DNA of 64,000 nt from NCBI GenBank assembly GCA_039587755.1, contig JBDHBD010000021.1:8027-72026 (forward strand), given 5' to 3'. Of the stretch, positions 1,094 through 17,547 are shown one piece after another. The stretch is from Gemmatimonadota bacterium. GTDB taxonomy: Bacteria > Gemmatimonadota > Gemmatimonadetes > Palauibacterales > Palauibacteraceae. Numbering within the stretch: the first letter of the stretch is position 1; every line of letters begins with the position of its first letter. The notes under the pieces were generated by a model that was given only the letters and a program-made list of their open reading frames with translations, was not told the origin of the DNA and made no database searches. A program made the position numbers and the translations under genes.

Positions 1094-2422
1094 TCAGTGG
1101 ACGCCGGCCTTGACCTCTTCGGCCTCTTCGACCTTCTTGGGTGAGCGTTCGTCGGCGCCGGTGTAGACCTGCCGTGGACGGGCGATCCGCTGGTCTCCGT
1201 CCTCCAGCATCTCCTGCCACTGCGTCAGCCAGCCCACCGTGCGCGGGATCGCGAACAACACCGGGAACATCGACACCGGGAAGCCCAGCGCCTGGTAGAT
1301 GATCCCCGAGTAGAAGTCCACGTTCGGGTACAGCTTCCGGCCCACGAAGTACTCGTCCTCCAGCGCGATCTTCTCCAGCTCGACCGCGATGTCCAGCAGC
1401 GGGTTGCGGCCGGTGACGGCGAACACCTGCTCCGCCATCTCGCGCAGGATCTTGGCGCGCGGGTCGTAGTTCTTGTACACCCGGTGACCGAAGCCCATGA
1501 GCCGGAAGTCTCCGGCCTTCACACGAGCCACGTAATCGGGGATGTTCTTCACATCACCGATCTCGCTCAGCATGCGGAGGACTTTCTCGTTCGCGCCCCC
1601 ATGCAAGGGCCCGTACAGGGCCGCTGCCGCCCCGGCTACCGCACAGTACGGATCGGAATGCGAGCTTCCGATGCCGCGCATCGTATTCGTGCTGCAGTTC
1701 TGCTCATGGTCGGCGTGCAGGATGAACAGCACCTCCAACGCCTTCTCGAGCACCGGGTTGGGCTCGTATTTCAACTCGGTTGCCTTGAACATCATGTTCA
1801 AGAAGTTGCCGGTGTAGCTGAGGTCGTTGTCCGGATGCACATACGGCATCCCGAGGCTGTTCCGGAACGCCAACGCGGCCAGCGTCGGCATCTTGCCGAC
1901 GAGCCGCTTGATCTCGAGAGCCCGGACTTCGGGATCCGCGATATCGCGCGCCTCGGGGTAGAAGGTGGATAGCGCTGCCACCGTACTCACCAGGATTCCC
2001 ATCGGGTGAGCGTCGTATCGGAAGCCGTCCATGAACTTCTTGATCTTCTCATGGACCATGGTGTGGTGCGTGATCTCCCACACCCACTCCTTTAACTCGG
2101 CCTCGCTGGGTAGGTCACCCTTCAGGACCAGGTACGCCACTTCCAGAAACGTGTAGTTCTGTGCCAGATCCTGGATCGGGTAGCCCCGGTAGCGCAGGAT
2201 TCCGCGCTCCCCGTCGACAAAGGTGATCGAGCTCTTGCACGACGCGGTGTTTCCGAACCCCGGGTCGTATGTGAGAAGCCCAAAGTCCTCTTCATCCACC
2301 TTGATCTGACGCAAGGCAGTAGCTGGAATGGTGGCCCCGTACTTCGGATAGGTGCCGTACGTGATCGGCAGCTCATAGGTTTTGCCCGTACGGTTGTCAG
2401 TAATGGTCAGGCTGTCAGGCAC
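1094..2422 (-). CDS. gltA: citrate synthase (hexameric type II)
   Basis: Full-length match to citrate synthase sequence motifs (…GYPIQDLA…HADHEQNCSTNTMR…GFGHRVYKNYDPRA…). GTG start at 2422 preceded by GGAAGGAGG; the long N-terminal extension in ORF 1094..2644 is rejected. Confidence 0.9.
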   Translation of the reverse strand: MPDSLTITDNRTGKTYELPITYGTYPKYGATIPATALRQIKVDEEDFGLLTYDPGFGNTASCKSSITFVDGERGILRYRGYPIQDLAQNYTFLEVAYLVLKGDLPSEAELKEWVWEITHHTMVHEKIKKFMDGFRYDAHPMGILVSTVAALSTFYPEARDIADPEVRALEIKRLVGKMPTLAALAFRNSLGMPYVHPDNDLSYTGNFLNMMFKATELKYEPNPVLEKALEVLFILHADHEQNCSTNTMRGIGSSHSDPYCAVAGAAAALYGPLHGGANEKVLRMLSEIGDVKNIPDYVARVKAGDFRLMGFGHRVYKNYDPRAKILREMAEQVFAVTGRNPLLDIAVELEKIALEDEYFVGRKLYPNVDFYSGIIYQALGFPVSMFPVLFAIPRTVGWLTQWQEMLEDGDQRIARPRQVYTGADERSPKKVEEAEEVKAGVH

Positions 2423-2784
2423 TTGTGCCTCCTTCCTGCAACTCGGGTCCGGTGGCCGGGGCGGGCCGGGACCCGGTCGCATACACGGGGTTGCGGCTGC
2501 CCTCGCGAGTCCGGCAGATGCGCGTGCACCACCCGGTCGCGCAGACAACCGATGGACAGAGAGGCAAGGGCCGTGCGCGCCGTCCGGTTGTTCGCCGCCC
2601 GGTGGGGCGAGCGCCGCGGTGGGCCTTTCTGCCCGTCGCATCAAGCCTTAGGCGACCCCACCCGAGGAATCTGCAACCGACCGGACACGGCCAGGGATCC
2701 CGTGCTCGGGGCAAAAAGTCGCAGCGTAGGCCAACGGGCGGGGTGGTTTTCCCCCTTGAGGGACGGGCTTCGCGACGGGGAGGG

Positions 2785-3645
2785 TCACGCGGCGTTTGCC
2801 TCGTTACTCAGGCTGTCGAGCAACGCTCGCGAGCGATCCGCGCGCGCGGTCCAGAAGCGGGCGATGTCGGCCGTGATCTCCGACCATCTCCCATGCAGCT
2901 CGACCCACCGTCGTGCCTCGGCCGCCAGCCAGCTGAGGGTGGCCGCCGCATCCTGTCCGAGGAGTGCCTCGAGCGCGTACTTCCGCTCTCCCGCACGCAA
3001 CCCCAGACCGAGCTCTTCGGCCGCCCGTCGAAGATCGGATCGCACGAGTATCAGGCCGCTCCGCACGGGGCTCAGCAGAGAAGGAACGAATTCTTCGGGC
3101 GACTCCTGGCGCGGATCGGGCAGCGCGGGCGCATCCCGAAGGTGCAGGGGCAACCGCTGCGGGCCGCCCACACGGCTCGCTTCCTCGCGCAGTGCCGCGT
3201 CCAGGACGTTGGCCCACGCGGCGTAGAACCCATCGTGGAGCTGGGAAGTCTTGGCCAAGAAAGCCGGGAGAAAGCTCAGAAGATGCTCCCACAGAAACGT
3301 GTGCCGTACGCGGCGAGCCGCCTGTTTCTCTCGCTCTGAGCCGGCTTCACTCTCCAGCTCGCACAGCTCCGCGTAGCTCGCGAGCATCACGGCCAGGTGA
3401 TCGGGCTCGGGGGGTGGTGCCTCGCCCAGCGCGCGCCAGAAGCCGGCAATTCGGTCTCGAGCCTCTCCACCCAGCATTCCTTCCAGACCGAGATATACGG
3501 AGGCGTACGGATACAGCTGGAACTCGAAAAGCTCGGTGTAGACCGTGTCGTCCGGGACGGGACCGAGGCCCAGCAGATCGGCCAGCCGCTGAGAGGCGGG
3601 CGACGGGGGCTCGACGAGATAGCCGAGCGTTCGAAACAGCTCCAT
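2785..3645 (-). CDS. TorD/DmsD-family cytoplasmic chaperone for molybdoenzyme maturation (putative)
   Basis: 286 aa, acidic helical protein with TorD-like pattern (…ELFEFQLYPYASVYLG…), located immediately downstream of the Mo-bisPGD catalytic subunit gene. Family assignment is from motif memory only. Confidence 0.5.
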   Translation of the reverse strand: MELFRTLGYLVEPPSPASQRLADLLGLGPVPDDTVYTELFEFQLYPYASVYLGLEGMLGGEARDRIAGFWRALGEAPPPEPDHLAVMLASYAELCELESEAGSEREKQAARRVRHTFLWEHLLSFLPAFLAKTSQLHDGFYAAWANVLDAALREEASRVGGPQRLPLHLRDAPALPDPRQESPEEFVPSLLSPVRSGLILVRSDLRRAAEELGLGLRAGERKYALEALLGQDAAATLSWLAAEARRWVELHGRWSEITADIARFWTARADRSRALLDSLSNEANAA

Positions 3646-3661
3646 CGTTGCGCGTCTCGCG

Positions 3662-6595
3662 TCAGTCCGCCGCCACGGGCTCGAGGCGGTAGGCCTGCTT
3701 CACCGGCTTCACCGGTCGCATCAGCCAGTGAGGGCGCCGCGTTCCGTCGGGTGATACCTGACGGGCCGAGCGTGTCTTGGCCAGCCATTTCTGGAACACG
3801 CGATGCGCCTTCTCGGTGTCGACCGCGATGTCTCCGTAGCGATCGCCCGACTCGGCGCGCCGCACCCGCACCGCCTGGTGCCAGCAATGCATCCCGGAGA
3901 TCGGGTCGGGGTGCACCGGGAAGGTGAGGTTCTGGTGCACACCCACGTCGGTCCACCAGATGCGTCGCGTGTCGGGATCGTCGGAATCATACGGACGGGC
4001 GCCGCGTTTCCGACCCATTCGCCACCCCGCCCCCTCCCGGTCGAGCTTGACCGTCGCCATCAGCTGCCGCTGGCCCTCATCCCCCAGTTTCCAGCGTCCC
4101 ATGTGATGGCTGCAGGCCACGACGCCCGGGCGGATCCCCTCTGTCACCCACGCCTTCACGACGAAGTAGCCGATCTCCGTCTCCACCCGCACCAGGCCGC
4201 CGGTCTTCATGCCCAGCGGGGCCGCGTCTTCCGGGTGGAGCCACAGCGGGTTCGTGTGGGCGATCTCGTCCAGCCATTTCGCGTTCGCGCTCCGCGTGTG
4301 GATCTGGACGGGAAGGCGGAACGTGGAGATCAGGACCTTCTGGTCCTCGGCCAGCACCTCGGGGTGGACGTGGCTCTTGATGTAGGTCGGCAGGGCGTAC
4401 TCCGGCCATCCCCAGCGCACGAGGGTCGGGGAGTAGAACTCCAGACGGCCGCTCGGGGTGGGAAAGCCGCGCACCACCTTGCCGTTCTGATGCACACCGG
4501 CCAGCCGACGCCCCTCGGCATCCGGCTCGGGGCTTCCCGTCGGGGCCAGATTCAGCGCGGCCGGTTTGGGGGCGTGCGTCCACACGCGTCCGAGTTCATC
4601 CTCCACCGCGTCCTTCAACTCGTCCCGGCCGACCTCTGCCTCGTACAGAGGTCCGATGTCGCGGGCGACCTCGAACGCGCCGTAGCGGCGCATGTAGGCC
4701 AGCGGGTCCAGTCCCTCTCGCTCGGCCGCCTCCGGAAGGCCAGGCACCGAGTTCTCGAAGATATAGCGGTAGTACTCGTCGACGCTCAACCGCTCGCCGG
4801 GGCGCTCGGCGGACTCGACGAACTCGCGGATTCCCAGCTCCCCGTCCGGATCGATGCGCCACGAGAGCTCGAGCCAGAACTCGTTCTCCTCCCACACCTC
4901 ACCGGGGTTCGTGTGGCGCGTGTCTCCGACGGCTTCACCCATGCGCTCGCGAGCCGCCCGCAGCACGGGCTGACGAAAACCGATCCACTGACCGTCGTGC
5001 GTCTCGTACGAGTGTATGTCGTGCCGTTCCGGCCCATGCCCCATGGGCAGGATGTAGTCGGCGAAGTAGGCACTCTCGTTCCACGTCGGTGTGAGAGCGA
5101 CGTGCAGGCCCACCCGTCTTTCGTCGGTCAGCATCTCGAGCCACGAGAAGCCATCCGGGTTCGTCCACACGGGGTTGTAGACGCGGGTGAAGTACACATC
5201 GAGCTTGCCTCGACCGTCCCGCACCAGATGCGGAAGCAGGAAGGAGAGCTCGTACATGGTGAGCGGGTACTCTTCGGGCCACGTGAGTCCGTTCCACGTC
5301 TCGGGGTGGCGAGGCAGACGGATTGGACGCGGTACGAACTTGTTCCACGCATTCGGATAGAGGCCGCCCGGTGTGGCCACGGCCCCCAGGAGGGCGTTGA
5401 GGAAGAAGAGGGTACGCGATACCTGCCACCCGCCCTCGTTCCCAGCGGCCGCGCTTCGCCAGTTATGGGTGGCGAACCGGGTGCCTGCCGTGGCGACGGT
5501 CTCCGCCACCTGACGCAGGACATCGGCCTCGATCCCCGATTCCTCGGCTGCATACTCGAACGTGTAGTCGGCGTACAGCCGCTTCAGCTCGTCCTCGAAT
5601 CGCTCGAAGGTTGGCTCGGCCTCCGGACGGGCCGCCTCCAGGTACTGCCGCCAGTTGAACCACCGCCGTACGTAGTCTCGGTTGTAGAGGTCGTTCTGAA
5701 TCAGGTGGTTCGCGATTGCCAGCAGCACGGCGGCCTCGGAGCCCGGGAACGTGGGCAGCCAGTAGTCGGCGTGGGTGGCGGTGTTCGAGAGACGGGTATC
5801 TAGCACGATGAGCTTGGCCCCCGCCTGCTTCGCCTCGGAGATCCGCTGCGCGTGGGGGTTGAAGTAGTGGCCCGTCTCCAGGTGCGAGCTTACCAGCAGT
5901 ATCACCTTCGCGCGGCTGTGATCGGGGCTCGGACGGTCGATCCCGCACCAGAACTGATATCCCGCACGCGCGCCGGACGAGCAGATGTTCGTGTGAGAGT
6001 TGTGGCCGTCCACCCCCCAGGCGGCCATGATCCGCTCGGTGAAGCCATCCTCCCCTGGACGACCCACATGGTACATGACCTCGCGGTGGCGACCCTCCTG
6101 AATCGCCTTTCGGATGCGCGCCGCTAGATCGTCCAGCGCTTCGTCCCAGCTCACACGGGTCCACTTCCCTTCCCCTCGCTCACCGCCTCGCTTGAGCGGA
6201 TACAGAATCCGATCCGGATCCGTGATCTGATTCCGGGTCGCGGGACCCTTAGCGCAGTTCCGCCCACGGGAGCCCGGATGTTCGGGATTGCCCTCGAACT
6301 TGCGGATCTCGAACGTCTCCCGGTCCACGTAGGCGAGAAGCCCGCACGCCGACTCGCAGTTGAAGCAGGTGGTGGGGACCAGCATGAATCGGCGCTCCAC
6401 CCGCTCGGGCCAGGCCCTGGAGTCCAGCTCGACCCAGTCGTCCCACCGCTCCCTGGGCGGGAAGGCCGCGAGGTGGACGCGGCTCGGGCCCGGATAGAAC
6501 GTCTCGCCGCGGGCCTCGGTCTCGGCCCGCGCGGCGCTCACTCTTCGGTTGACGTCGCTCAGATCCATCGCAGGTCTCCGGCGCGTTCCCGACAT
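3662..6595 (-). CDS. molybdopterin (Mo-bisPGD) oxidoreductase catalytic subunit, PsrA/PhsA/SoeA-like, no evident Tat signal
   Basis: 977 aa with the N-terminal C-x2-C-x3-C…C [4Fe-4S] motif (CFNCESACGLL…GRNCAKG) typical of complex-iron-sulfur molybdoenzymes. No twin-arginine motif with a hydrophobic h-region. Alternative start at 6568 (MDLSDV…, GGAGA RBS). Confidence 0.8.
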   Translation of the reverse strand: MSGTRRRPAMDLSDVNRRVSAARAETEARGETFYPGPSRVHLAAFPPRERWDDWVELDSRAWPERVERRFMLVPTTCFNCESACGLLAYVDRETFEIRKFEGNPEHPGSRGRNCAKGPATRNQITDPDRILYPLKRGGERGEGKWTRVSWDEALDDLAARIRKAIQEGRHREVMYHVGRPGEDGFTERIMAAWGVDGHNSHTNICSSGARAGYQFWCGIDRPSPDHSRAKVILLVSSHLETGHYFNPHAQRISEAKQAGAKLIVLDTRLSNTATHADYWLPTFPGSEAAVLLAIANHLIQNDLYNRDYVRRWFNWRQYLEAARPEAEPTFERFEDELKRLYADYTFEYAAEESGIEADVLRQVAETVATAGTRFATHNWRSAAAGNEGGWQVSRTLFFLNALLGAVATPGGLYPNAWNKFVPRPIRLPRHPETWNGLTWPEEYPLTMYELSFLLPHLVRDGRGKLDVYFTRVYNPVWTNPDGFSWLEMLTDERRVGLHVALTPTWNESAYFADYILPMGHGPERHDIHSYETHDGQWIGFRQPVLRAARERMGEAVGDTRHTNPGEVWEENEFWLELSWRIDPDGELGIREFVESAERPGERLSVDEYYRYIFENSVPGLPEAAEREGLDPLAYMRRYGAFEVARDIGPLYEAEVGRDELKDAVEDELGRVWTHAPKPAALNLAPTGSPEPDAEGRRLAGVHQNGKVVRGFPTPSGRLEFYSPTLVRWGWPEYALPTYIKSHVHPEVLAEDQKVLISTFRLPVQIHTRSANAKWLDEIAHTNPLWLHPEDAAPLGMKTGGLVRVETEIGYFVVKAWVTEGIRPGVVACSHHMGRWKLGDEGQRQLMATVKLDREGAGWRMGRKRGARPYDSDDPDTRRIWWTDVGVHQNLTFPVHPDPISGMHCWHQAVRVRRAESGDRYGDIAVDTEKAHRVFQKWLAKTRSARQVSPDGTRRPHWLMRPVKPVKQAYRLEPVAAD

Positions 6596-6653
6596 CGACG
6601 CGCCATCGCGAATCTCCTATGTGAACGCCTGCGGCTGGCTCGCAGCCTGCCCA

Positions 6654-8273
6654 TCATGCCAACGGCACCGATTGCCCTGCCTGCACGTACGCGTGCTCGA
6701 ACGCCAGCAGGCCGATGAGCGCCGCCGGGCCGGCCACGACCCCGATCCACGGTGCCGCCACGCCGACCAGCGTCAACACGATCCCGACCCAGAAGAAGCC
6801 GCGGTACCGGCCGCGAGTCATCTCGTGCGCCGCCAGGTGAGCGTGTGCCGTCGCGTGTGTGATGGTTGTCTCGCCCGCCACCATGAGGAGGTGGACGAGG
6901 CTCGCACCGGCAAGCAGCCACAGCAGTGGTGTGACTTCTGTCGGGTCGAGCCAGACGGCCACCGGCACCAGCGCGCCCGCTCCCGCCAGGACACCCTGAA
7001 CGAGCAGGTGGGGCGGAAGCAGCGGGTTTTGCCACAGATCGCGTGCTTTCGCCTGGGCGAACAGGTAGGCCGTATAGACCGCTGTGAGCGTGGCGAGCGG
7101 CAGCCCGGCGAACATGAGCCCCCACACCAGCTCGGCACGACCGAACAGGACGCCGAGCAAGTGGAGAGCCAGCACGATGCCGTATCCCCCTACGATGAAG
7201 GCGCCACGGACCAGCCAGCTCTCCCAGCGCCGCCTGGTGAAGATCATGTAGAACCGCTCGGGGTGCTCCAGATCCCAAATCAGCAAGCCACCAGTGAAGG
7301 CCAGGAAGGCGGCGCCGACCACCGGGACACCCCATCGCCAGACGGGGCTCTCCGCATTGATCCAGCCGGCCAAAAGGGCCAGTACGGCCACCAGATACGC
7401 GCCCGCCGCGACCCCCTTGGTCAGGGTGTAGAGGCTGACCCGCCAGTCCCAGGGCATCTTGTGGGGAACGTCGTAGGCCAGCACTGCCGCCGCGGCCGTG
7501 TTGGTGGGACTGACCGGGCCCGCATCGGCCACACGACCGGCCCCCGGCCGCTCGTTCTTGTCGCCGGCGTTCCGACCGTTGTCGGACCCGTGCCCGGGGT
7601 GACCGGAAACCACGTGGCGCAGACCAGTCGTCTGCTCGCTCCACATGAACAGATCGCCCGGCGGCCTGAGCGCCGCGATCGGGTTCAGCGTCGCCTCGTG
7701 CGCGCCCGTATAGAACAGCTTTGGATGCGTCTCCTTCTGGGAACGTCTGACCGAGACGGGCTGACGGTGCACGATACGCGACACCTCGGAGCCCGAATCT
7801 CCCAGATCGCCCACCAGGATCGCCTCCACGGGACACACAACGACGCACGCGGGCTCCAGGCCCATATCGATGCGGTGCGCGCAGAAGTTGCACTTCTCCG
7901 CCGAGTGGTCCTCCGGGTTGATGAAGATCGCGTCGTACGGACAGGCGGCGATGCACGCCTTGCAGCCGATGCAGATGGACTTGTCGAAGTCGACGATCCC
8001 GTCCGCCCGCCGGTACATGGCTCCGGTCGGACACGCGACCGCGCAGGGCGCGAGCTCGCACTGGTTGCAGCGTGTGACCTGGAAGGCACGGCGCGCCTCA
8101 GGGAACACGCCGATGTCCACGTACTTGACGTAGGTCCGGTTGACGGAGAGCGGGACTTCGTTCTCGGACTTGCAGGCGGTGCTACAGGCGTGGCACCCGA
8201 TGCACCGGGTATGATCGACGACCTTGGCCCAGCGCACGGGTGGGGCGCCGGCTTCGGCAGCGGTTGTCGCCAT
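6654..8273 (-). CDS. fused 4x[4Fe-4S] ferredoxin-like subunit + NrfD/PsrC-type integral membrane quinone-interacting subunit
   Basis: N-terminal ~200 aa carry four Cys clusters (CIGCHACSTAC, CNQCELAPCAVACP, CIGCKACIAACP, CNFCAHR…CVVVCP). C-terminal ~330 aa form ~8 predicted transmembrane helices. ATG at 8273 preceded by GGGAG. Confidence 0.75.
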   Translation of the reverse strand: MATTAAEAGAPPVRWAKVVDHTRCIGCHACSTACKSENEVPLSVNRTYVKYVDIGVFPEARRAFQVTRCNQCELAPCAVACPTGAMYRRADGIVDFDKSICIGCKACIAACPYDAIFINPEDHSAEKCNFCAHRIDMGLEPACVVVCPVEAILVGDLGDSGSEVSRIVHRQPVSVRRSQKETHPKLFYTGAHEATLNPIAALRPPGDLFMWSEQTTGLRHVVSGHPGHGSDNGRNAGDKNERPGAGRVADAGPVSPTNTAAAAVLAYDVPHKMPWDWRVSLYTLTKGVAAGAYLVAVLALLAGWINAESPVWRWGVPVVGAAFLAFTGGLLIWDLEHPERFYMIFTRRRWESWLVRGAFIVGGYGIVLALHLLGVLFGRAELVWGLMFAGLPLATLTAVYTAYLFAQAKARDLWQNPLLPPHLLVQGVLAGAGALVPVAVWLDPTEVTPLLWLLAGASLVHLLMVAGETTITHATAHAHLAAHEMTRGRYRGFFWVGIVLTLVGVAAPWIGVVAGPAALIGLLAFEHAYVQAGQSVPLA

Positions 8274-8337
8274 CAACGATTCTCCCGAGAACCGGGCGTC
8301 CCACCCGCGGGGTACGCCCGGTGGATGGCCGTCGAGC

Positions 8338-8916
8338 TTAGATGAAGAGCGACGACTTCGCCGTGAGAGCGCTACCCAGGAACGTGCCGACGCCGCCGTG
8401 CTCGATGTCGTCCATCAGCTCTTCGTCGCGGATCCCCATCACGTTCTGCGACATGTCGCACGCGATGAACGTGACGCCGAGATCGCGCGCTAGCTGCATC
8501 ATCTCCTCGAGCGACTGCACGTTCTCCTGCTTCATCATCGCCCGCAGCATCTTGGCTCCGACGCCGAAGTAGTTCATCCGCGACGCCGGCAAGCTCTTCG
8601 TGCTCCCGGGAGCCATAACCCCCATCATCTTCTGGAAAAACCGCTTGTCCGAGAGCACCGTGTCCTTCTTGAGCGCAGTCAGCCCCCAGAAGGTGAAGAA
8701 CATGTCCACCTTCTGCCCCATCGCGGCTGCCCCGGTGGCGAGCACGAAACTGGCTAGCACCCGGTCCAGGTCCCCGGAGAACACGACCATCGAGACTTTG
8801 TCCTCGGGTTGCGCCTCCTCGAGCTCGGAGATCCGGCTCTCGAGCGCGTCCAGCCGCTGGGCCAGGCCTGTTGTCTCCCCCGTGCCGAGTGTGGAAGCGA
8901 TGTTGTCGACTGGCAT
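8338..8916 (-). CDS. DsrE/DsrF-like (DsrE2/TusD-like) sulfur-relay family protein
   Basis: 193 aa from ATG 8916 (RBS GGGAGGAAAG). Sequence …MVVFSGDLDRVLASFVLATGAAAMGQKVDMFFTFWGL… resembles the DsrE/DsrF-like family. The N-terminal 48 codons of ORF 8338..9060 are rejected. Confidence 0.6.
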   Translation of the reverse strand: MPVDNIASTLGTGETTGLAQRLDALESRISELEEAQPEDKVSMVVFSGDLDRVLASFVLATGAAAMGQKVDMFFTFWGLTALKKDTVLSDKRFFQKMMGVMAPGSTKSLPASRMNYFGVGAKMLRAMMKQENVQSLEEMMQLARDLGVTFIACDMSQNVMGIRDEELMDDIEHGGVGTFLGSALTAKSSLFI

Positions 8917-8935
8917 GCCACTTTCCTCCCGCAGG

Positions 8936-9187
8936 TTATGCACCCTTCTTGACGTAGTGAATGTAGAGGTGGGTGCCGCTCTCGTCGACTGTCTCCTGGT
9001 CGAGCAACTCCATGTCCTTGGCCACCTTGGCCCACCCCTGGAAGTCCTTGATCGAGCCACGGTCCGTGGCTGTGATCTTGAGGATCTGGCCCGGATCGAG
9101 GGCCATGAGCTCCTTGCGCGCCATCACCACGGGCATGGGGCAGTTCATCCCACGCGCGTCCAGCTCTTTGTCGAAAGTCATCTCCAT
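8936..9187 (-). CDS. tusA: TusA-family sulfurtransferase
   Basis: 83 aa MEMTFDKELDARGMNCPMPVV… with the conserved CPxP active-site motif. RBS AAGGAG 8 nt upstream of ATG 9187; the larger ORF 8936..9571 is rejected. Confidence 0.75.
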   Translation of the reverse strand: MEMTFDKELDARGMNCPMPVVMARKELMALDPGQILKITATDRGSIKDFQGWAKVAKDMELLDQETVDESGTHLYIHYVKKGA

Positions 9188-9201
9188 CGTGTTCTCCTTG
9201 T

Positions 9202-10434
9202 CTACACTCTCGCCTCTGCCCCCGCGCCCACCAGCCCGTACGCCTGCGAGAGGGCACAGATGTTCTTTCCGAGCTCGAGCTCCGAGGCCTCGTCCTCGTC
9301 GGGCTCGAGCAGGCCGGCGTTCACCCGTTTGATTTCTACGTACTCGTCCGGGAATTTCGGCAAGCTCTCGAGGATGTACTGGACGAACGGCTCCTCGCCC
9401 TTGTGAACCATCTGCAAGCCGTCGTTGGTTTCCTTGAGCTCGCCCAGCGGGGCCGCGAACTGGCCCGCGTCGTTCGCTTCCGTGCGACCGCTGAAGTGAC
9501 CCGGCATGATCAGCGTCTCGTCCGGCAGCTCGAGCAAACGGGACAGCGACCGGTAGTGGATCGGCGCCCACGTCTCTCCCTTCCCTCCCAGGTCAGGTCG
9601 AGCGATGGAGCGGATGAAGATGGAGTCACCGGTGAACAGGAAGCGGTCGTCGAGATAGAAAACGATGTTCCCGAGTGTGTGCCCCGGGACGTGCATTGCC
9701 CTGATGGTCGCCCCTCCGACAGCGAGCTCCCAGCCCTCCTTCAGGAACTCGTAGTCCATCTCCGCCGGAAGCACGTCGAGCGGGTGGATCCCGTCGTACG
9801 GGTGCAGGAAGTACGGCACCTTCAGCCAATCCGCCAGTGTCCGACCGCCACTGATGTGGTCCGCGTGGCCATGCGTATCGAGCACGGCCGTGATCTCGAA
9901 ATTCTCGGCTTCCGCCAGCTCTGAGTACTGGTCGATGTGGCGCAACGGGTCGATCACCACGCCCCTACCGTCGCTCACCACGACGTGGCTCAGGCAGCCC
10001 CGGGCCAGCCGCTGGATCTGGTAAACGGCGAGCTTGTCCTCTTCGGCCACGGTGCGCAGCTCGTAATGGTTCCCCCACGCGAGCGTGCCGCCCCCAAGAT
10101 GACGTATGTCGTAGCCCAGCGGGCGAAGCGCGTCCACCACGAAATCGGACGTGTCGCCCTTCGCGCACACAGCCAGGATCGGCTCGTCTCTCGGCATCCC
10201 CTCCATCAAGCCGCGATCGTGGGCTTCCTTCACGGACTCTACGAAGTCGAAGCTCTCGCTGGACTCCAGCATCTCGAAGTAGGGAACGTTGATCGAGCGA
10301 AGCGGCTTTGTGCCCTCGACCGGTGCGGCCTCGGCCTCATCGCGGTTGCGGATGTCGAGGATGAAGATGTCCTCCCCGCTGTGGAGCGCGTTGTTCAGCC
10401 TCGCGACCGTCCATTCCCCAGTCGGCGCCGTCAT
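9202..10434 (-). CDS. rhodanese domain fused to MBL-fold metallo-hydrolase (persulfide dioxygenase-like)
   Basis: N-terminal ~100 aa rhodanese-like. C-terminal domain has the metallo-beta-lactamase HxHxDH motif (DTHGHADH) and later His/Asp ligands, an architecture like PDO-rhodanese fusions. RBS GAGAGG. Confidence 0.75.
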   Translation of the reverse strand: MTAPTGEWTVARLNNALHSGEDIFILDIRNRDEAEAAPVEGTKPLRSINVPYFEMLESSESFDFVESVKEAHDRGLMEGMPRDEPILAVCAKGDTSDFVVDALRPLGYDIRHLGGGTLAWGNHYELRTVAEEDKLAVYQIQRLARGCLSHVVVSDGRGVVIDPLRHIDQYSELAEAENFEITAVLDTHGHADHISGGRTLADWLKVPYFLHPYDGIHPLDVLPAEMDYEFLKEGWELAVGGATIRAMHVPGHTLGNIVFYLDDRFLFTGDSIFIRSIARPDLGGKGETWAPIHYRSLSRLLELPDETLIMPGHFSGRTEANDAGQFAAPLGELKETNDGLQMVHKGEEPFVQYILESLPKFPDEYVEIKRVNAGLLEPDEDEASELELGKNICALSQAYGLVGAGAEARV

Positions 10435-10537
10435 ATCGAACCTCTCTTCTCCGTCGTTGTTTGGGCGGTCAAGTTATCGTGGGGCCAAGGATCGTTTCAA
10501 CGTCGCGGGCATCCGTCTGGTCGCCCGAAACCGCCGC

Positions 10538-11119
10538 TCAGATCTTCCGGTTTCGACCGAACAGCAGCCCGAGGGTCGCGGCAAAGAAGACCGATAGCGC
10601 GGCAATCACTGTGAATCTTCGCCACAAGAGGCCGACGGGATCCGCGGCCGACGTCACGACGGTCGCGAAGATGCCGTGGTCCGCCATTCCGCTCAGGAAA
10701 AAGCCACCCGACAGAGCCACGAGCGCCAGGCCGACGGTCCACCCGACCGACGCTCCGCACAGCCAAGCCGTCGTCCCGGCCGCCACCGCGGCACTGGCCG
10801 GGGCTGTCAGCCACAGGACCCACACCCCGATCACCGTGCCAGGCCCGCCCAGGAGAGCACCGAGGAGTGTCCCCGCCACAGCGACTACCGCCCCGCTTGT
10901 CAAACCGAGCAGAAACGCACGGCCGGGCAGAAACGCAGGGCCGGGTGAAGGAGATGCGGGACCGTCCTCGCCGCGCGTGTCCGGCCTAGGCCGAAACAAT
11001 CGAGTAACACGCGCGCAGGAAAGCCAGGTACGGAAGGATCGCCAGCAGGCCCGCCACGATACCGATTCGACCCGGCCACCGGTCACGGGTGCGAAAACCG
11101 AAGACGAGGGCGGCCGCAC
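10538..11119 (-). CDS. hypothetical small integral membrane protein (start uncertain)
   Basis: Hydrophobic Gly/Ala-rich helices. Overlaps the next ORF by 134 nt, so the true start is probably an internal GTG (~10879). Sits directly upstream of the sulfur operon. Confidence 0.3.
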   Translation of the reverse strand: MRPPSSSVFAPVTGGRVESVSWRACWRSFRTWLSCARVTRLFRPRPDTRGEDGPASPSPGPAFLPGRAFLLGLTSGAVVAVAGTLLGALLGGPGTVIGVWVLWLTAPASAAVAAGTTAWLCGASVGWTVGLALVALSGGFFLSGMADHGIFATVVTSAADPVGLLWRRFTVIAALSVFFAATLGLLFGRNRKI

Positions 11120-11321
11120 ACAGAAAGGGCGTTCCGAACTGAAACACGAGTGCCGAGAGAACGAAACCGAACAGCCTGCCGCTCCCCTCGACCTCCGGAG
11201 GCGTCACGGTGCCGAGACCGCCGTTCAGGTACGCGAACAGGGCGGCCACGGCCAGCGCCGTTCCCCCAGCGACCATCGACAGCTGGGCCAGACGTCTTTC
11301 GGCTTCGTTCGATTCCGTCAT
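10986..11321 (-). CDS. hypothetical small integral membrane protein
   Basis: 111 aa with 3-4 predicted TM helices; no recognisable motif. Confidence 0.35.
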   Translation of the reverse strand: MTESNEAERRLAQLSMVAGGTALAVAALFAYLNGGLGTVTPPEVEGSGRLFGFVLSALVFQFGTPFLCAAALVFGFRTRDRWPGRIGIVAGLLAILPYLAFLRACYSIVSA

Positions 11322-11339
11322 GCAGGCGATCTGCGGGTG

Positions 11340-11996
11340 CTATCTCAGTTGAATTGAAACGCGGCGCGGCTGTCCGCGCTGCGGATCCGGGTTCCTGACA
11401 ATCACACGAAAGTCGGCGGGTCGCTTGTCGAGGTGCCCGGCCGCCGACTCGTCCCAGTTCATCGACATCGGGTTCTCACGCGAGCCGTAGAACAGGGGAC
11501 AATCGGCTCTCCAGCGCCGTGACCGCAGGCTGCCTCCCGATACCGGACGTACGTCCACCGCCTGGAACTGGTTTCCCTCCTCGTCCTCCACCCCGATACG
11601 CGGGTTGCAGATGGTGATCATGCCGTCGGTGCAGTTTTCGAGGAACTGGTCGAAGGTCGTGCGGTGCCGTTCCTCGTAATTGTGGAGCACCAGGTCGACA
11701 CGGATGGTCTTGACCCGGCTGCCTCCGCTGGTGGTACCCTGCGACGCCCCGCTCACCTCGAACGTCCACGGCCCCATCTCGATCGGTTGGCCCACGTCGT
11801 AGTCCTGCGTGCAACCTGCATACAGGAGGCCGAGAAGGACACCGGTTGCGACTCGTTGGACCGGGATCGTGGTCACGATCGTCGCTAGTCCAGTGACACG
11901 GCTGCGACCCGGAACCCGCCCTCCACCGGTTCTGGGTGCTCGATCTGTAGCACGAGCCCCTCGCTGTCTACCCACACTCGAAAGACCACCACCCAC
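11340..11996 (-). CDS. hypothetical lipoprotein (start probably GTG ~11876)
   Basis: Signal peptide plus lipobox LLYAGC, then soluble domain; no family recognised. Confidence 0.4.
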   Translation of the reverse strand: MGGGLSSVGRQRGARATDRAPRTGGGRVPGRSRVTGLATIVTTIPVQRVATGVLLGLLYAGCTQDYDVGQPIEMGPWTFEVSGASQGTTSGGSRVKTIRVDLVLHNYEERHRTTFDQFLENCTDGMITICNPRIGVEDEEGNQFQAVDVRPVSGGSLRSRRWRADCPLFYGSRENPMSMNWDESAAGHLDKRPADFRVIVRNPDPQRGQPRRVSIQLR

Positions 11997-12980: not shown

Positions 12981-13925
12981 TTAGCCTTCGTGCGGGAAGC
13001 GCTCCGCCATCACCGCGAGTCGCTCGAACCGCTCGCGGCACACGCGAGTGGTCGTCTCCAGGTCGATCTCGTAGTCCTTGAAGCGCCGCTGACGCTTGAA
13101 GTATTCCGCCGGTGCCGTCCAGTCGGGCAGCACGTTCAGACGGTACGTCTTACCGTTCCACACCTCGTAGAGCGGGAACAGGCCACTCGACACGGCGATC
13201 CGGACGAGCCCTACCGAGTCGGCCGGCTCCGATTTCCACCCGGTCGGACAGGGTGAGTGCATCAGCAGGAAACGGGTTCCGGTGATAGAGAACGCGGTCT
13301 CCAGCTTGCGGCGGAAGTCCACCGGGTGGGCGATCGACAGGGTCGCCGCATACGGGATTCCGTGTGCCACCAGGATGGACATGATGTCCTTCTTGTCCTC
13401 CTTCTTCCCGGTCGGCGTGGTGGTGGTGCGCGCACCGGGCGGGGTGGCCGAGGAACGTTGGCCGCCCGTGTTCCCGTAGATCTCGTTATCGTAACAGATG
13501 TAGAGGATGTTGTCGTCGCGCTCGGCCGCCGCGGAGAGCGTGGCGATGCCGATGTCGTAGGTCCCGCCGTCACCCGCCCAGCAGATCACCTGGCCGCGCT
13601 CCTCGTTCAGGTCGCGGACACAGGCCAGCCCGGACGCCACGGCCGCCGCCGATGCGAAGGTCGTGTTCACCACGGGCGCACCGTAGCTGGTGGTGGGAAA
13701 CGCGCCGGCCGTCACCGCCCCGCAGCAGGCGGGGATCGCGAGGGTGCAGACCTCTCCCGCCTCCTCCAGCGCCCTGCCCAGCATGGTGAGCCCCACGCTC
13801 ATGCCGCACCCGCCGCAGTTCGTGTTGCCGGGGCGGAGCAGGCACTCCTCGGTGCACGGAATGGACGGAACTTCGCCCAGAGCACCCGGGCTCGGCGGTG
13901 TTCTCGTCGCTGTATCGGTCGTCAT
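12981..13925 (-). CDS. 2-oxoacid:ferredoxin oxidoreductase beta subunit (TPP-binding; Por/Vor/Kor type)
   Basis: TPP-binding GDGG…NEIYGNTGGQ motif and Cys ligands for the proximal [4Fe-4S]. ATG 13925 with GGAG RBS. Confidence 0.85.
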   Translation of the reverse strand: MTTDTATRTPPSPGALGEVPSIPCTEECLLRPGNTNCGGCGMSVGLTMLGRALEEAGEVCTLAIPACCGAVTAGAFPTTSYGAPVVNTTFASAAAVASGLACVRDLNEERGQVICWAGDGGTYDIGIATLSAAAERDDNILYICYDNEIYGNTGGQRSSATPPGARTTTTPTGKKEDKKDIMSILVAHGIPYAATLSIAHPVDFRRKLETAFSITGTRFLLMHSPCPTGWKSEPADSVGLVRIAVSSGLFPLYEVWNGKTYRLNVLPDWTAPAEYFKRQRRFKDYEIDLETTTRVCRERFERLAVMAERFPHEG

Positions 13926-13947
13926 GCCTCGCGCTCCTTGCTCCCCT

Positions 13948-15123
13948 TCAGGCGGCGATCCCCATCCACACGGGCCGGTCAGCACGTTCGCGAGTCGTAA
14001 GATCCGCCAGCACCTCCTCGATCATGGCGGGCGTCACGTCGCCTCCGCACAGACCGGTCAGGTAGTCCTGGATCAGCAGATCGCTTCGGGTCGCCTGGAA
14101 GGCGGCCCGGATGTCCTGCCAGAACACGCCGCCCATGCCCGCCGCGTAGTTGCGGTCCAGCACGCCGACCCTGCCGGCGGTACGGCACGCCTCGCGGAGC
14201 GCCTCCTCGGGGAAGGGACGGAACATCTTCAGCTTGATGAGCCCCACCTTTTCGCCCGCATCGCGGCGGGCCTGCACGACTTCGTGTGCCGTCGTGGCGA
14301 TGGAGCCGATCGCGACCAGGATCGTCTCCGCGTCTTTCGTGCCCAGGGTCTGCAGCGCGTCACCCGGGTCGCGGCCAAACATCTCCATGAACTCCGCTCG
14401 AGCCTCCTGGAGAACCGTCGGGACCCTTGACATCGCCTCGTCGATCTCGAGCCGCAGCGACGTGGCCACGTCGGGCCACATCAGACCGCCCAGCGTCTTG
14501 GGATCGTCGTGCCGCATCCGGTGCGGCAGGTCCAGATCCGGAAGGTAGCGGTCCGTCTGGCTCTGATCGGCCAGGTCCGTCTCACCCTGCGTGTGCGACA
14601 GGATGAAGGCGTCGAGCGACACGAGCGCCGGCAACAGGATCCGGTGATCCTCCGCGATGCGGAACGCGAGCAGCGTCGTGTCCATCACCTCCTGATTGCT
14701 CTCGCAGTAGAACTGGATCCAGGGAAAGTCCCGCAGCATCAGCGTGTCGCCGTGATCCGCCCAGATGTTCCAGGGAGGTCCGAGCGTGCGGTTCACCGTC
14801 GCCATCACGATCGGGAGCCGATAGTAGCCGGCTACCATGATGTTCTCGACCATGTAGGCGAGGCCGTTGGACGAGCTGGCGGTGAACGCGCGCGCGCCGG
14901 CGAGCGAAGCTCCGATCGACACTCCCATCGCGCTGTGCTCGCTCTCGACCGGCACGACCCGACACTTTGTGAACGGAAACTTCGCCACGTACTCGACGAT
15001 CTCCGTCTGTGGCGTGATCGGATAGATCCCGCACGCGGCACCCCGCGCTTCGCGGTTCGCTTCCGCCGCGACGCTCAGCGCGTGACCTGCGGCGTGATTC
15101 CCGGTGACGACTTCTACAGGCAT
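13948..15123 (-). CDS. 2-oxoacid:ferredoxin oxidoreductase alpha subunit
   Basis: Typical PorA/KorA N-terminus (…VVTGNHAAGHA…GIYPITPQTEIVEY…). Start ATG 15123 with GGAG RBS. Confidence 0.85.
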   Translation of the reverse strand: MPVEVVTGNHAAGHALSVAAEANREARGAACGIYPITPQTEIVEYVAKFPFTKCRVVPVESEHSAMGVSIGASLAGARAFTASSSNGLAYMVENIMVAGYYRLPIVMATVNRTLGPPWNIWADHGDTLMLRDFPWIQFYCESNQEVMDTTLLAFRIAEDHRILLPALVSLDAFILSHTQGETDLADQSQTDRYLPDLDLPHRMRHDDPKTLGGLMWPDVATSLRLEIDEAMSRVPTVLQEARAEFMEMFGRDPGDALQTLGTKDAETILVAIGSIATTAHEVVQARRDAGEKVGLIKLKMFRPFPEEALREACRTAGRVGVLDRNYAAGMGGVFWQDIRAAFQATRSDLLIQDYLTGLCGGDVTPAMIEEVLADLTTRERADRPVWMGIAA

Positions 15124-15171
15124 GGCGGCGGCTCCTGGCTCTCGTGGCGCTGGCTGGCCCTCAGACGGCAT

Positions 15172-17547
15172 TCAGAGATGACTCATGAAGATCACGTTGC
15201 GGGGGCACTCGGTGACACAGATCCCGCACCCCTTGCAGTACGCATAGTCGAACACCAGCTGGTGCCCGACCCGCTTGAGTACCCCCTCGGGGCAATAGGT
15301 GACACAGAGATCGCACTCGTTGCACACGCCGCACGACAGGCACCGCTTCGCCTCGCTCGGATCCGTCAAGCCCATGTGGATCTCGTCGAACGTGGACTGG
15401 CGGGTCGTCATGGGCAGGCTGGCGCCCTCCTGACCCGACTGACGCTCGAACAGGTGGAGCCGCATGGCGTCGGGGCGGATCACGTCGTCGTGCCAGACGT
15501 CCACGTCCCGCCGGTCCGCGGCGTGCTCGGTGATCTCCGTCCGCTCGCCGCTCAGCGCACCATGAATGTGGATTGCAGAGCGTCGTCCGCTCCCGATCGC
15601 GCCTGCCACCGTTCCGTCGTTGGTCGCTAGGTCGCCGATCGCGAACACGGGCGTCTCCAGCAGCCCGAGCAGCTCTTCCCCTTCCCTCACCTCGGTCCCC
15701 TCCGGGAATACGCTGAGGTCGGGAGATTGCCCGAGTGCGAGGATCACGCGGCTGCACTGCAGCTCGAAGTCCGACCCAGGAATCTCCACCGGGCGACGAC
15801 GGCTGGACTTGTCGGGTTCGCCGAGCTCCATGCGCCGGCAGGTGAGCCGATAGCCAGCGCCGTCGGGGCCCGCAGCGTGGGCCGAGGCGGCTTCCGACTC
15901 CGCGACTGTCCCCTCGGCTGCGGAACCGTCCGGCTGCAGCGAGATCGGTTGGACCAGATAATCGAGCTGCACTCCCTCCTCGAGTGCCTCGTCGATCTCC
16001 TCCGCGATGGCCGGCATTTCTTCCCGCGTGCGGCGGTACACGACGCGAGCGCTGTTCGCGCCGAGACGCAGCGAGGAGCGGGCGGCATCCATCGCCGTGT
16101 TCCCGCCACCCACCACGACCACATCCTCTCCGTCCACCCGAACGCGGCCGCGTCGCACCAGGTCGAGGAAGTCGATCCCCTGATCGACGGCTGGGGTGTC
16201 GCCGATCCCCAGCCGCAGTCCGCGCAGCTCCTGCAGGCCGGTCGCGACGAGCACGGCGTCGTGCTGGCCGGCCATCTCCATGAGCCCGCGCCGATCGATC
16301 GGATGCTCGGTGACGGCCTCCACCCCGAGCGCCAGGATGCGACCGATCTCGTGGTCCAGCACGTCCTCGGGCAGCCGAAAGCGTGGAATCCCCGAGCGAA
16401 GGAGCCCCCCCAGGTCAGCCGTCGATTCGTACACCGTGACCCGATAGCCATAACGAGCGAGATGGTAGGCGGCGGTCAGCCCGGCCGGCCCCGAGCCGAC
16501 GACCGCCACCCGCTCATCGTGAACCTCCACGGGGTTGAGCGCCGCGTTCCCGTTGTCGCCGGCGTAACGTTCCAGCTGCCGCACGTTGACCGCGCCGTCC
16601 AGATCGATCCGATTGCACGAAGCCATGCACGGGGCCGGGCACACCCGTCCGCACACAGCCGGGAACGGGCTGCTCTCCAGCAGGATCTCGAGCGCTCGGT
16701 CGGGGTCGTCGTGGGCCAGGGCGTGCAAGAACCCCTGCACGTCGTTCCCGGCCGGGCAGACATGGTTGCAGGGAGGGATGTACTGCTGTCGGTGCGGCTG
16801 CTCCGTAGCCCACTGTCCCGTCTCGATCCCCGGCAGGTCGCCACCCGCCCCTTCGAGAAAGCTCGGTCCCCGTGGAACGATCGTGTACGGGGCGGCCGTT
16901 TCCGCCGACTCCTCTTGGATTCCCGCCTCTTCCGCCCCTTCCGGCACTGCTCCCCCTGGCGCGGTCGCTTCCTCCAGGCCGACGCCGGCGTCGGCCGCGG
17001 CATCTCCGGCAAGGCGCAGCGCCTCGTGCGCCTGGCTCGCCGCCGCGATGTTCGGCCCCACGAAACCCAGGTGCTCGAGAGCGTCGTGAATCTCCGTTAG
17101 CTCGAAGCCGAGCAGCCGCGCGGCGGCCCCGGCGAGCGCCGTGTTGACAATCGGCACACTTCGGGTGCCCAGCTTGTTGGCGCGGGCGATAGCGGTGGCG
17201 TCCACCGTCGCGACGGGATTGTCCGGAAACTGCTCCGCCAGATCCTGCGGCTCCTTCGTGGTGTTGATCAGGATCCAGCCGCCGGGCTTCAGGCCACCCG
17301 TGATGGCGGATCCGACCAGGGTCGGATCGAGGACGATGATGTGGTCGGGCGAGTAGATCAGGTTTCGGTTGGCGATCGGCTCGTCATCGTAGCGACAGAA
17401 GGCCTGGATGGGCGCCCCTGATCGCTCCGCGGCGTACAGACCGAAGGCCTGCACCGACTGGCCGAGCAGGAAACGGGAGGTGGCGATGATCTTGGCCAGG
17501 GTCACACCACCCTGACCGCCTCTCCCATGAATGCGGATCTCGACCAT
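15172..17547 (-). CDS. fusion protein: OFOR gamma subunit - GltD/NfnB-like NAD(P)H-dependent FAD/[FeS] oxidoreductase - OFOR delta (2x[4Fe-4S] ferredoxin) subunit
   Basis: Residues 1-~185 PorG-like. Residues ~250-690 carry GltD-type Cys clusters (CNHVCPAGNDV…CGRVCPAPCMASC) and two Rossmann GxGxxG motifs (VVGSGPAGLTAA; VVVGGGNTAMDAA). Residues ~700-791 have two CxxCxxCxxxCP motifs typical of PorD. RBS GAGGAG. Confidence 0.8.
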   Translation of the reverse strand: MVEIRIHGRGGQGGVTLAKIIATSRFLLGQSVQAFGLYAAERSGAPIQAFCRYDDEPIANRNLIYSPDHIIVLDPTLVGSAITGGLKPGGWILINTTKEPQDLAEQFPDNPVATVDATAIARANKLGTRSVPIVNTALAGAAARLLGFELTEIHDALEHLGFVGPNIAAASQAHEALRLAGDAAADAGVGLEEATAPGGAVPEGAEEAGIQEESAETAAPYTIVPRGPSFLEGAGGDLPGIETGQWATEQPHRQQYIPPCNHVCPAGNDVQGFLHALAHDDPDRALEILLESSPFPAVCGRVCPAPCMASCNRIDLDGAVNVRQLERYAGDNGNAALNPVEVHDERVAVVGSGPAGLTAAYHLARYGYRVTVYESTADLGGLLRSGIPRFRLPEDVLDHEIGRILALGVEAVTEHPIDRRGLMEMAGQHDAVLVATGLQELRGLRLGIGDTPAVDQGIDFLDLVRRGRVRVDGEDVVVVGGGNTAMDAARSSLRLGANSARVVYRRTREEMPAIAEEIDEALEEGVQLDYLVQPISLQPDGSAAEGTVAESEAASAHAAGPDGAGYRLTCRRMELGEPDKSSRRRPVEIPGSDFELQCSRVILALGQSPDLSVFPEGTEVREGEELLGLLETPVFAIGDLATNDGTVAGAIGSGRRSAIHIHGALSGERTEITEHAADRRDVDVWHDDVIRPDAMRLHLFERQSGQEGASLPMTTRQSTFDEIHMGLTDPSEAKRCLSCGVCNECDLCVTYCPEGVLKRVGHQLVFDYAYCKGCGICVTECPRNVIFMSHL

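Follow-up and report, generated by a model that had tools for sequence, protein, structure and literature searches.

What does a respiratory molybdoenzyme do when it is encoded next to proteins that carry and oxidize persulfide sulfur? The question is raised by an operon of six genes, designated g1 to g6, in a stretch of 64,000 nucleotides from a Gemmatimonadota bacterium (GenBank assembly GCA_039587755.1, contig JBDHBD010000021.1), which is referred to below as the window. The genes encode a fusion of rhodanese and metallo-β-lactamase domains (Rhd-MBL, g1), a TusA-like protein (g2), a DsrE-like protein (g3), a fused iron-sulfur (FeS)/NrfD membrane subunit (g4), a molybdenum (Mo) enzyme (g5) and a TorD-like chaperone (g6). 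Our best explanation, to which we assign a probability of about 55%, is that the locus specifies a cytoplasmic pathway that takes sulfane sulfur to sulfate and passes the electrons to the quinone pool. The complex of g4 and g5, likened to SoeABC by the published features of that enzyme, is most likely a sulfite:quinone oxidoreductase that clears cytoplasmic sulfite arising from persulfide or thiosulfate. The domains of the six open reading frames (ORFs) were assigned with Pfam and NCBIfam models (Table 1), and both collections agree with the identity given to each protein in an earlier reading of the window (the initial annotation). The ORFs are real, co-directional and, as that annotation had described them, tightly spaced, with gaps of 14, 19, about 61-64, about 58 and 16 nucleotides from g1 to g6.

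Table 1. Genes of the operon with their window coordinates, strand, product length and Pfam matches.
Gene	Pfam match	Position	Strand	Length
g1	Rhodanese (E 1.7e-5) + Lactamase_B (E 1.7e-21)	9202-10434	minus	410 amino acids
g2	TusA (E 1.9e-18), CPMP cysteine motif	8936-9187	minus	83 amino acids
g3	DrsE_2 (E 1e-48)	8338-8916	minus	~192 amino acids
g4	Fer4_11 (E 1e-21) + NrfD (E 1.1e-15), single chain	6654-8276	minus	540 amino acids
g5	Molybdop_Fe4S4, Molybdopterin, Molydop_binding	3662-6595	minus	977 amino acids
g6	Nitrate_red_del/TorD (E 7.8e-13)	2785-3645	minus	286 amino acids

The FS0 cluster motif of g5 consists of C77, C80, C84 and C114, and its predicted Mo ligand, Cys205, aligns with Cys173 of PsrA and with the ligand cysteine of ArrA. 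Since 85-86 of 86 family members share the four FS0 cysteines and Cys205, g5 is a cofactor-bearing enzyme. A cofactor-less protein of the ActB/QrcB kind was rejected because all of the cofactor cysteines are invariant. The protein has a conserved N-terminal extension of 70 amino acids and a mass of about 111 kDa, similar to that of SoeA, which is reportedly about 109 kDa (Dahl et al. 2013). The nearest solved folds to its AlphaFold model, built with 40 homologs (predicted local distance difference test score, pLDDT, 86.8; predicted template modeling score 0.89), were ArrA and PsrA at only 18-22% identity, followed by Fdh/Nap, and none of the solved structures is close. Among the NCBIfam models PhsA scored best (200 bits against a cutoff of 694), and Fdh-alpha (150 bits, cutoff 666), NapA (71 bits) and NarG (14 bits) all lay under PhsA and DmsA. 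By family scores and folds alike, PhsA/PsrA/ArrA-type enzymes are closer to the catalytic subunit than enzymes of the formate dehydrogenase or nitrate reductase type, which bears out the initial annotation on this point.

Analysis of the amino termini indicated that neither subunit is exported through the twin-arginine translocation (Tat) pathway. In g5 no RRxFLK motif with a hydrophobic stretch after it was found, and a Tat motif was present in 0 of 86 family members as against 11 of the 11 nearest outgroup representatives (30-45% identity), all with the classical motif. A signal peptide was likewise not found in g4, and the absence of a Tat leader from both the catalytic and the FeS subunit, as first proposed from the sequence, was thus upheld. 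A periplasmic reductase of the Psr/Phs/Ttr type was rejected for g5 because the Tat signal is absent.

The g4 protein consists of a PsrB/SoeB-like FeS domain, a linker of about 70 amino acids and an 8-helix NrfD-type domain with a quinone site. The FeS domain matches Thermus PsrB (2vpw_B) over its whole length (E 7e-45), and its 16 cysteines, enough for four [4Fe-4S] clusters, are all invariant in 49 of 49 homologs. In g4, and likewise when averaged over the family, lysine and arginine are enriched in the loops that lie on the side of the N-terminal FeS domain. The predicted topology is therefore N-in, with the FeS domain in the cytoplasm; a single-sequence AlphaFold model of g4 was unusable (pLDDT 42.6). 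The same inverted orientation has been postulated for SoeC (PMC8076601). Because the FeS module is fused N-terminally to an NrfD domain that is predicted to be N-in, the catalytic subunit would also lie on the cytoplasmic side. In 65 of 80 genome loci, nearly all of those with upstream sequence, the Mo gene is preceded by a fused FeS/NrfD gene; the subclade that diverges most has the fusion as well, and so do the RefSeq annotations of Thermomicrobium roseum and Rhodococcus jostii RHA1. An annotation or frameshift artefact was ruled out because the fusion is kept in those 65 loci and in RefSeq. What had looked like an oddity of this locus is the norm throughout a large family, and the "unusual architecture" ascribed to the operon was overstated. 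The chaperone gene comes after the Mo gene in 50 of the 80 genome loci. The g6 product scored 43 bits on the NCBIfam TorD model, under the cutoff, and its match to the TorD/NarJ family is limited to the N-terminal 155 residues or so, the C-terminal half being without annotation. This chaperone is unusually long, at 286 amino acids in the window and 370 in another locus (L114, 16996-18108).

The proteins encoded by g1, g2 and g3 have the features of a persulfide relay. Among solved structures g1 is closest to 3tp9 and 3r2u (S. aureus CstB-type) and, after these, to persulfide dioxygenases (PDOs) from bacteria, plants and humans. The protein carries the rhodanese active-site loop CAKGDTS, the metal motif HxHxDH (DTHGHADH) and PGHT. 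Judged by its motifs, it is a predicted CstB-type enzyme, that is, an MBL-fold PDO with the metal motif and a rhodanese cysteine, in a variant architecture: compared with the CstB type the order of the domains is reversed and there is a single rhodanese domain. This Rhd(N)-MBL(C) architecture is also found in L003, L072 and R. jostii RHA1, and CAKGDTS, DTHGHADH and a C-terminal ELGKNxCA cysteine are kept in homologs from Thermoanaerobaculia, Acidobacteriota and Rhodococcus. The ELGKNxCA motif with its invariant cysteine (g1 residues ~386-394; also in L003, L072 and L083) lies outside every domain model, and this end of the Rhd-MBL proteins may be a flexible sulfur-carrying tail. The g2 protein has the DxRGxxCPxP cysteine motif and reached 49 bits on the NCBIfam TusA model (cutoff 78). 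The g3 protein has a conserved cysteine within FIACDMS, reached 83.5 bits on the NCBIfam DsrE2 model (cutoff 210) and matches the structures 3pnx (PDB; E 1.6e-27) and 2qs7, the latter of the DsrE2B type (PMC11094781); it is probably a DsrE2B-like sulfurtransferase of the DrsE_2 family. When 80 metagenomic loci were retrieved with the Rhd-MBL protein as the query, TusA adjoined Rhd-MBL in 38 and DsrE in 36. Stand-alone cassettes of the g1-g3 type are followed by a YeiH-like transporter, YeeE-like Sulf_transp proteins and a CsoR-like regulator. The YeiH-like family bears the NCBI name "putative sulfate exporter". The presence of transporters in this position fits a Mo enzyme that fills the step of end-product disposal.

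The surroundings of the Mo gene were then compared across its relatives. About 1180 ORFs within 10 kb of the Mo gene, from the window and 81 related loci, were clustered into families, and neighbors were counted by tblastn over the 80 genome loci. The commonest accessory family by the core (g4-g6) was a PDO-like MBL, found near it in 29 of the 80 loci and often of the CstB-like MBL-Rhd-Rhd form of about 470 amino acids. DsrE was found in 14 loci, TusA and an ArsR-type regulator in 13 each, SulP, which comes after the core, in 12, and a sulfate/thiosulfate-type ATP-binding cassette (ABC) ATPase in 10. These six families are all among the ten most frequent, which also include DUF445 and one probable antisense artefact. 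The PDO-like MBL occurs on either side of the core and on either strand, in Gemmatimonadota, Acidobacteriota, Actinomycetota, Binatia and Chloroflexota. The relay genes are upstream and co-directional in the window locus and in Acidobacteriota; in Actinomycetota they are downstream of the chaperone gene, with the MBL gene divergent, and in a Chloroflexota metagenome-assembled genome (MAG) they are on the opposite strand. The initial annotation had expected the relay genes to be linked at homologous loci, and they are, in at least five phyla and in varied arrangements.

Individual loci extend this list. One (L003) has the order Pyr_redox_2 (sulfide:quinone oxidoreductase-like), DsrC-like, TusA, DsrE, Rhd-MBL, FeS/NrfD and Mo, and L114 has the full six-gene order plus SulP with a g5 homolog that is only 59% identical. 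In a complete genome of 5.1 Mb (L088), two Sulf_transp genes and a CstB-like MBL-Rhd gene directly precede the core, with TauE nearby. On plasmid pRHL3 of R. jostii RHA1 the order is DsrE-TusA-FeS/NrfD-Mo-Mrp, flanked by ArsR regulators, DUF202 proteins, thioredoxin and three MBL genes. The T. roseum locus has a CsoR-family regulator with a cysteine pair and without the copper-binding histidine, as in the persulfide sensor CstR. In Pyrinomonadaceae a sulfate/thiosulfate ABC importer is encoded directly upstream of the g4 homolog; the possibility that it is a molybdate transporter was discarded because its binding protein passes the cutoff of the sulfate-binding model and not that of ModA. Two of the Pyrinomonadaceae loci with this importer (L027, 8935-9994; L024, 6877-8011) also have conserved ORFs of about 181 and 173 amino acids, without a family match, between the FeS/NrfD and Mo genes. 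In three others (L068, L070 and L056) the Mo gene has no adjacent FeS/NrfD gene, and a CstB-like MBL and a DUF445 membrane protein still come after it; small toxin-antitoxin-like ORFs are found upstream of the Mo gene in L068 and L056.

We propose the following substrate, order of sulfur transfer and direction of electron flow. Persulfide sulfur, possibly derived from thiosulfate or sulfide, would be carried on cysteines of the rhodanese domain of g1, of TusA (g2) and of the DsrE2-like g3. The CstB-like dioxygenase domain of g1 would convert persulfide and O2 into sulfite, and thiosulfate brought in by import could be split by these carriers, giving sulfite and persulfide. The complex of g4 and g5, matured by g6, would then oxidize sulfite at a cytoplasm-facing, Cys-ligated Mo-bis(pyranopterin guanine dinucleotide) (Mo-bisPGD) site. 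The two electrons would pass from FS0 through the four clusters of the g4 FeS domain to the quinone site of the NrfD domain, as proposed for SoeABC. Oxidation of sulfite by quinone is strongly exergonic and requires no export; a cytoplasmic site is therefore well suited to it. SoeABC itself is a cytoplasmic sulfite oxidase downstream of the Dsr/sHdr sulfur relays (PMC6397845). A SoeABC-like sulfite role had been suggested in the initial annotation; the part that concerns a cytoplasm-facing complex with SoeABC-like features held, while sulfite as the substrate and membership of the SoeA clade are what we infer.

Several observations weigh against this pathway. More than half of the 80 homologous loci have no relay or sulfur gene within 10 kb of the Mo core, and the Rhd-MBL/TusA/DsrE cassette occurs without a Mo enzyme in 32 of 33 long metagenomic contigs. 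The relay is thus not "hard-wired" to the enzyme as had been claimed. Because the core is often without the cassette, the cassette is mostly without the core and the arrangements differ, the operon is a case in which two self-sufficient modules, the core g4-g6 and the cassette g1-g3, have come to lie side by side, as they have done repeatedly and independently. No family model claims g5, its best score being well under the PhsA cutoff. Its orthology to a characterized SoeA is unproven, the two having been set side by side by published descriptions. The sulfate/thiosulfate ABC importers by the core could also speak for an assimilatory role. CstB-type enzymes yield thiosulfate and not free sulfite (PMC9774590), and the actual substrate could therefore be thiosulfate or some other sulfur compound. 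Finally, the relative from A. aeolicus was first purified as a sulfur/tetrathionate reductase (PMC4378227).

This last point leads to the possibility that the complex is a cytoplasm-facing, quinol-dependent reductase of sulfur, polysulfide, persulfide, thiosulfate or tetrathionate, similar to bSreABC, to which the relay proteins deliver sulfane sulfur for conversion to sulfide in detoxification or assimilation. The A. aeolicus enzyme, a member of the bSreA/SoeA lineage, was also active as a polysulfide reductase, and the rhodanese SbdP interacts with it (PMC4378227, PMC11094781). The closest family models and solved structures of g5, namely PhsA, PsrA and ArrA, are those of reductases, and the thiosulfate/sulfate importers upstream of the core in Pyrinomonadaceae are in agreement with such a function. 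We nevertheless consider it unlikely, since the PDO in the operon depends on O2 and yields oxidized products rather than substrates for reduction, the carriers belong mostly to aerobic heterotroph lineages, and SulP and the putative sulfate exporters among the neighbors point to sulfate as the product. The predicted orientation of g4 and g5 is also opposite to that of PhsABC, so that quinol-driven reduction of thiosulfate or sulfur is harder to rationalize. Thiosulfate reduction by quinol is strongly endergonic, and PhsABC relies on the proton-motive force and a periplasmic site.

Two further explanations change the substrate of the Mo core rather than the direction of the reaction. The core might act on a non-sulfur compound (arsenite, selenium oxyanions, chlorate, nitrate or an organic molecule) and owe its sulfur-related neighbors to shared regulation or chance. 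That no curated family model gives g5 a function, that sulfur genes are absent from the 10-kb surroundings of the majority of loci, and that distant relatives (33-38% identity) are found in arsenic-related contexts would all agree with this. It is rendered quite improbable by the dominance of sulfur-related genes among the accessory families and by the persulfide-type regulators that adjoin the core in cultured carriers, and chance does not explain a linkage that recurs in at least five phyla with differing gene orders. Alternatively, the Mo enzyme might oxidize persulfide bound to a TusA, DsrE or DsrC-like carrier directly, without O2, to sulfite or sulfate and pass the electrons to quinone. 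Two cysteines of g5, Cys828 (VVACSHH, 84 of 86 members) and Cys904 (GMHCWHQ, 86 of 86), are invariant in the Tat-less family and not conserved in the Tat-type outgroup, as could be expected for such a reaction. TusA and DsrE, together with a DsrC-like gene in L003, are encoded immediately upstream of the core, and in RHA1 DsrE-TusA is directly joined to the core operon, with an MBL gene divergent from it. Most core loci, however, have no carrier gene nearby, and the commonest partner is a PDO, which already oxidizes persulfide. To our knowledge there is no precedent for direct oxidation of carrier persulfide in the Mo-bisPGD family, and we hold this explanation to be highly unlikely. If it were true, an oxidation through Cys828/Cys904 would constitute a third, O2-independent machine for cytoplasmic sulfane-sulfur oxidation beside rDsr and sHdr, spread over Acidobacteriota, Gemmatimonadota, Actinomycetota, Chloroflexota, Bacteroidota, haloarchaea and Asgard archaea.

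The oxidation of sulfite derived from persulfide remains our preferred reading, and the comparison with known systems is consistent with it. SoeABC, as described in Allochromatium vinosum, Ruegeria pomeroyi and Aquifex aeolicus, is a three-module complex iron-sulfur molybdoenzyme with a Cys-ligated Mo-bisPGD subunit that carries FS0 and no Tat leader, and these traits of the catalytic subunit were found in g5. Like the complex from the window, it combines a four-cluster FeS module with an 8-helix NrfD-type anchor that is predicted to be N-in (PMC8076601), and the step that it catalyzes follows a persulfide relay in the cytoplasm made up of rhodanese, TusA and DsrE proteins (PMC6397845). The differences are that SoeB and SoeC are separate proteins, while here, and family-wide, they are fused (540 amino acids in g4); that the order soeA-soeB-soeC is replaced by BC-A-chaperone; that the window operon has a dedicated TorD/NarJ-like chaperone; that the source of sulfite would be an O2-dependent CstB-like dioxygenase and not rDsr or sHdr; and that the carriers of the fused form are mainly non-proteobacterial heterotrophs. 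The bSreA/SoeA lineage, whose members are Cys-ligated and cytoplasmic, is large and, apart from a few archaea, bacterial; it collapses at 50% identity (PMC10100899). The g5 family, compared by description, is similar in size, in its nearly all bacterial membership with few archaea and in its collapse at 50%, a likeness that is suggestive.

Other systems resemble the operon in part. PsrABC/PhsABC (Thermus thermophilus 2vpw; Salmonella PhsA) provided the best matches, those of PhsA and PsrB mentioned above and that of PsrA at E 4e-40, and the Cys ligand of PsrA is shared. However, PsrA and PhsA are Tat-exported, periplasmic and about 200 residues shorter than g5, and the alignment with PsrA covers mainly g5 residues 75-415, at 22% identity structurally. 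Without a Tat signal and at less than a third of the PhsA threshold, g5 falls outside this group. The g1-g3 toolkit of rhodanese, TusA-like, DsrE-like and CstB-like PDO components is that of the cst and yrk operons (S. aureus CstR-CstA-CstB-SQR-TauE; Bacillus yrkD-J) (PMC9918477, PMC9774590), and loci related to the window operon also carry CsoR/CstR-like regulators and YeeE/TauE-type transporters. In contrast to CstB, with the order PDO-Rhd-Rhd, g1 has its single rhodanese domain at the N-terminus; the carrier domains are separate proteins in the window operon, and the end product would go to a respiratory molybdoenzyme instead of, or besides, an exporter. With NarGHI-NarJ the locus shares a cytoplasm-facing Mo-bisPGD complex, a non-exported N-terminal tail and a NarJ/TorD-family chaperone. 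It differs from NarGHI in the Cys ligand, the NrfD anchor and the very low score of g5 on the NarG model. The ligand in NarG is Asp, and NarI, the membrane anchor, is a dihaem cytochrome b.

The g5 family is broad and spans phyla of soil as well as of the sea. At least 8000 clusters at 90% identity were matched, with 70-80% identity among Gemmatimonadota, Acidobacteriota, Actinomycetota, Chloroflexota, Binatia, Dormibacterota and Myxococcota, and 46-62% for more distant members from T. roseum, R. jostii RHA1, haloarchaea, Bacteroidota, Calditrichota, SAR324 and Asgard archaea. A library clustered at 50% identity contains just a handful of representatives for all of these proteins; most of the representatives at about that identity are frameshifted fragments, which were excluded. 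Homolog searches with g5 and with the divergent members P0122 and P0123 returned unnamed or generic proteins, and a minor fused clade and an Asgard/Bacteroidota branch emerged. A tblastn search of plasmids matched the T. roseum, RHA1 and haloarchaeal members, with no proteobacterial SoeA among the matches. Among the proteins similar to g5, this family is the only clade without a Tat motif. In NCBIfam, the NCBI annotation pipeline PGAP and IMG, g5-type proteins bear generic names only, "molybdopterin-dependent oxidoreductase" or "anaerobic selenocysteine-containing dehydrogenase". A sister clade with Tat signals, presumably periplasmic, is represented by P0126 (1115 amino acids, about 45% identical to g5) and has an unannotated, frameshift-split copy on a plasmid of Sulfurovum mangrovi (L085, 7001-10166; 38% to g5). 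More distantly, plasmid pAZKH of Azoarcus sp. KH32C (L084, 1-13558) encodes a Psr-like Tat enzyme (34% to g5) with separate FeS and NrfD genes. Its neighbors are genes for a PhnD-like binding protein, a histidine kinase, a sigma-54 regulator and an ACR3 arsenite pump, and the locus may be that of an arsenic-related oxidoreductase.

Close relatives of the window support the integrity of the cluster. A JGI contig encodes identical proteins from the same six genes in the same order, and the order is also kept in a Gemmatimonadota MAG (L002; BHB10-38_Bin_413), where g5 is 94% identical. Synteny between this MAG and the window extends into the flanks, which contain genes for citrate synthase and 2-oxoacid oxidoreductase. 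Since order and flanks are both kept there, the cluster is a stable chromosomal feature of a Gemmatimonadota lineage. Scanning the locus for promoters and terminators gave no signal exceeding the shuffled expectation, and the operon boundaries were therefore taken from spacing and synteny. Public gene calls use an alternative start of g5 nine codons later (968 amino acids) and give g3 only 150 amino acids; the longer start of g3 aligns better with the DsrE fold.

Directly downstream of the operon are tandem citrate synthase genes (3-866 and 1094-2644, minus strand), which are kept in L002. The stretch upstream of g1 (10435-11900) has no Pfam match and about 83% DNA identity to L002; a membrane-like ORF of 111 amino acids lies inside it (10986-11321, minus strand). 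Farther upstream, a protein of 791 amino acids (15172-17547, minus strand) consists of a POR gamma domain fused to Fer4_20, Pyr_redox_2 and Fer4, the latter three forming an NAD(P)H module like the small subunit of glutamate synthase. This fusion adjoins genes for the alpha and beta subunits of a 2-oxoacid:ferredoxin oxidoreductase (12981-15171), an unusual architecture for such an enzyme.

In the accessible literature no description was found of a fused SoeBC form or of the window operon, and the idea of a Soe-type enzyme that disposes of sulfite from a PDO is not new. In a survey of Bohai Sea sediments based on KEGG Orthology (KO) assignments from IMG, SoeABC was reported to be undetected, and direct sulfite oxidases were described as rare or absent (PMC12345210). 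The names of the MAGs suggest that the closest relative of the window, L002, comes from that survey. The scale of this conserved and unannotated family, together with its cultured carriers, makes it a worthwhile lead, and in T. roseum and R. jostii RHA1 the hypothesis is directly testable. If our reading is true, an abundant, conserved and barely annotated enzyme would convert sulfite to sulfate in the cytoplasm during heterotrophic oxidation of sulfur outside the Proteobacteria, and recognition of its fused form would alter the inventories of sulfur-cycle genes for soils and sediments.

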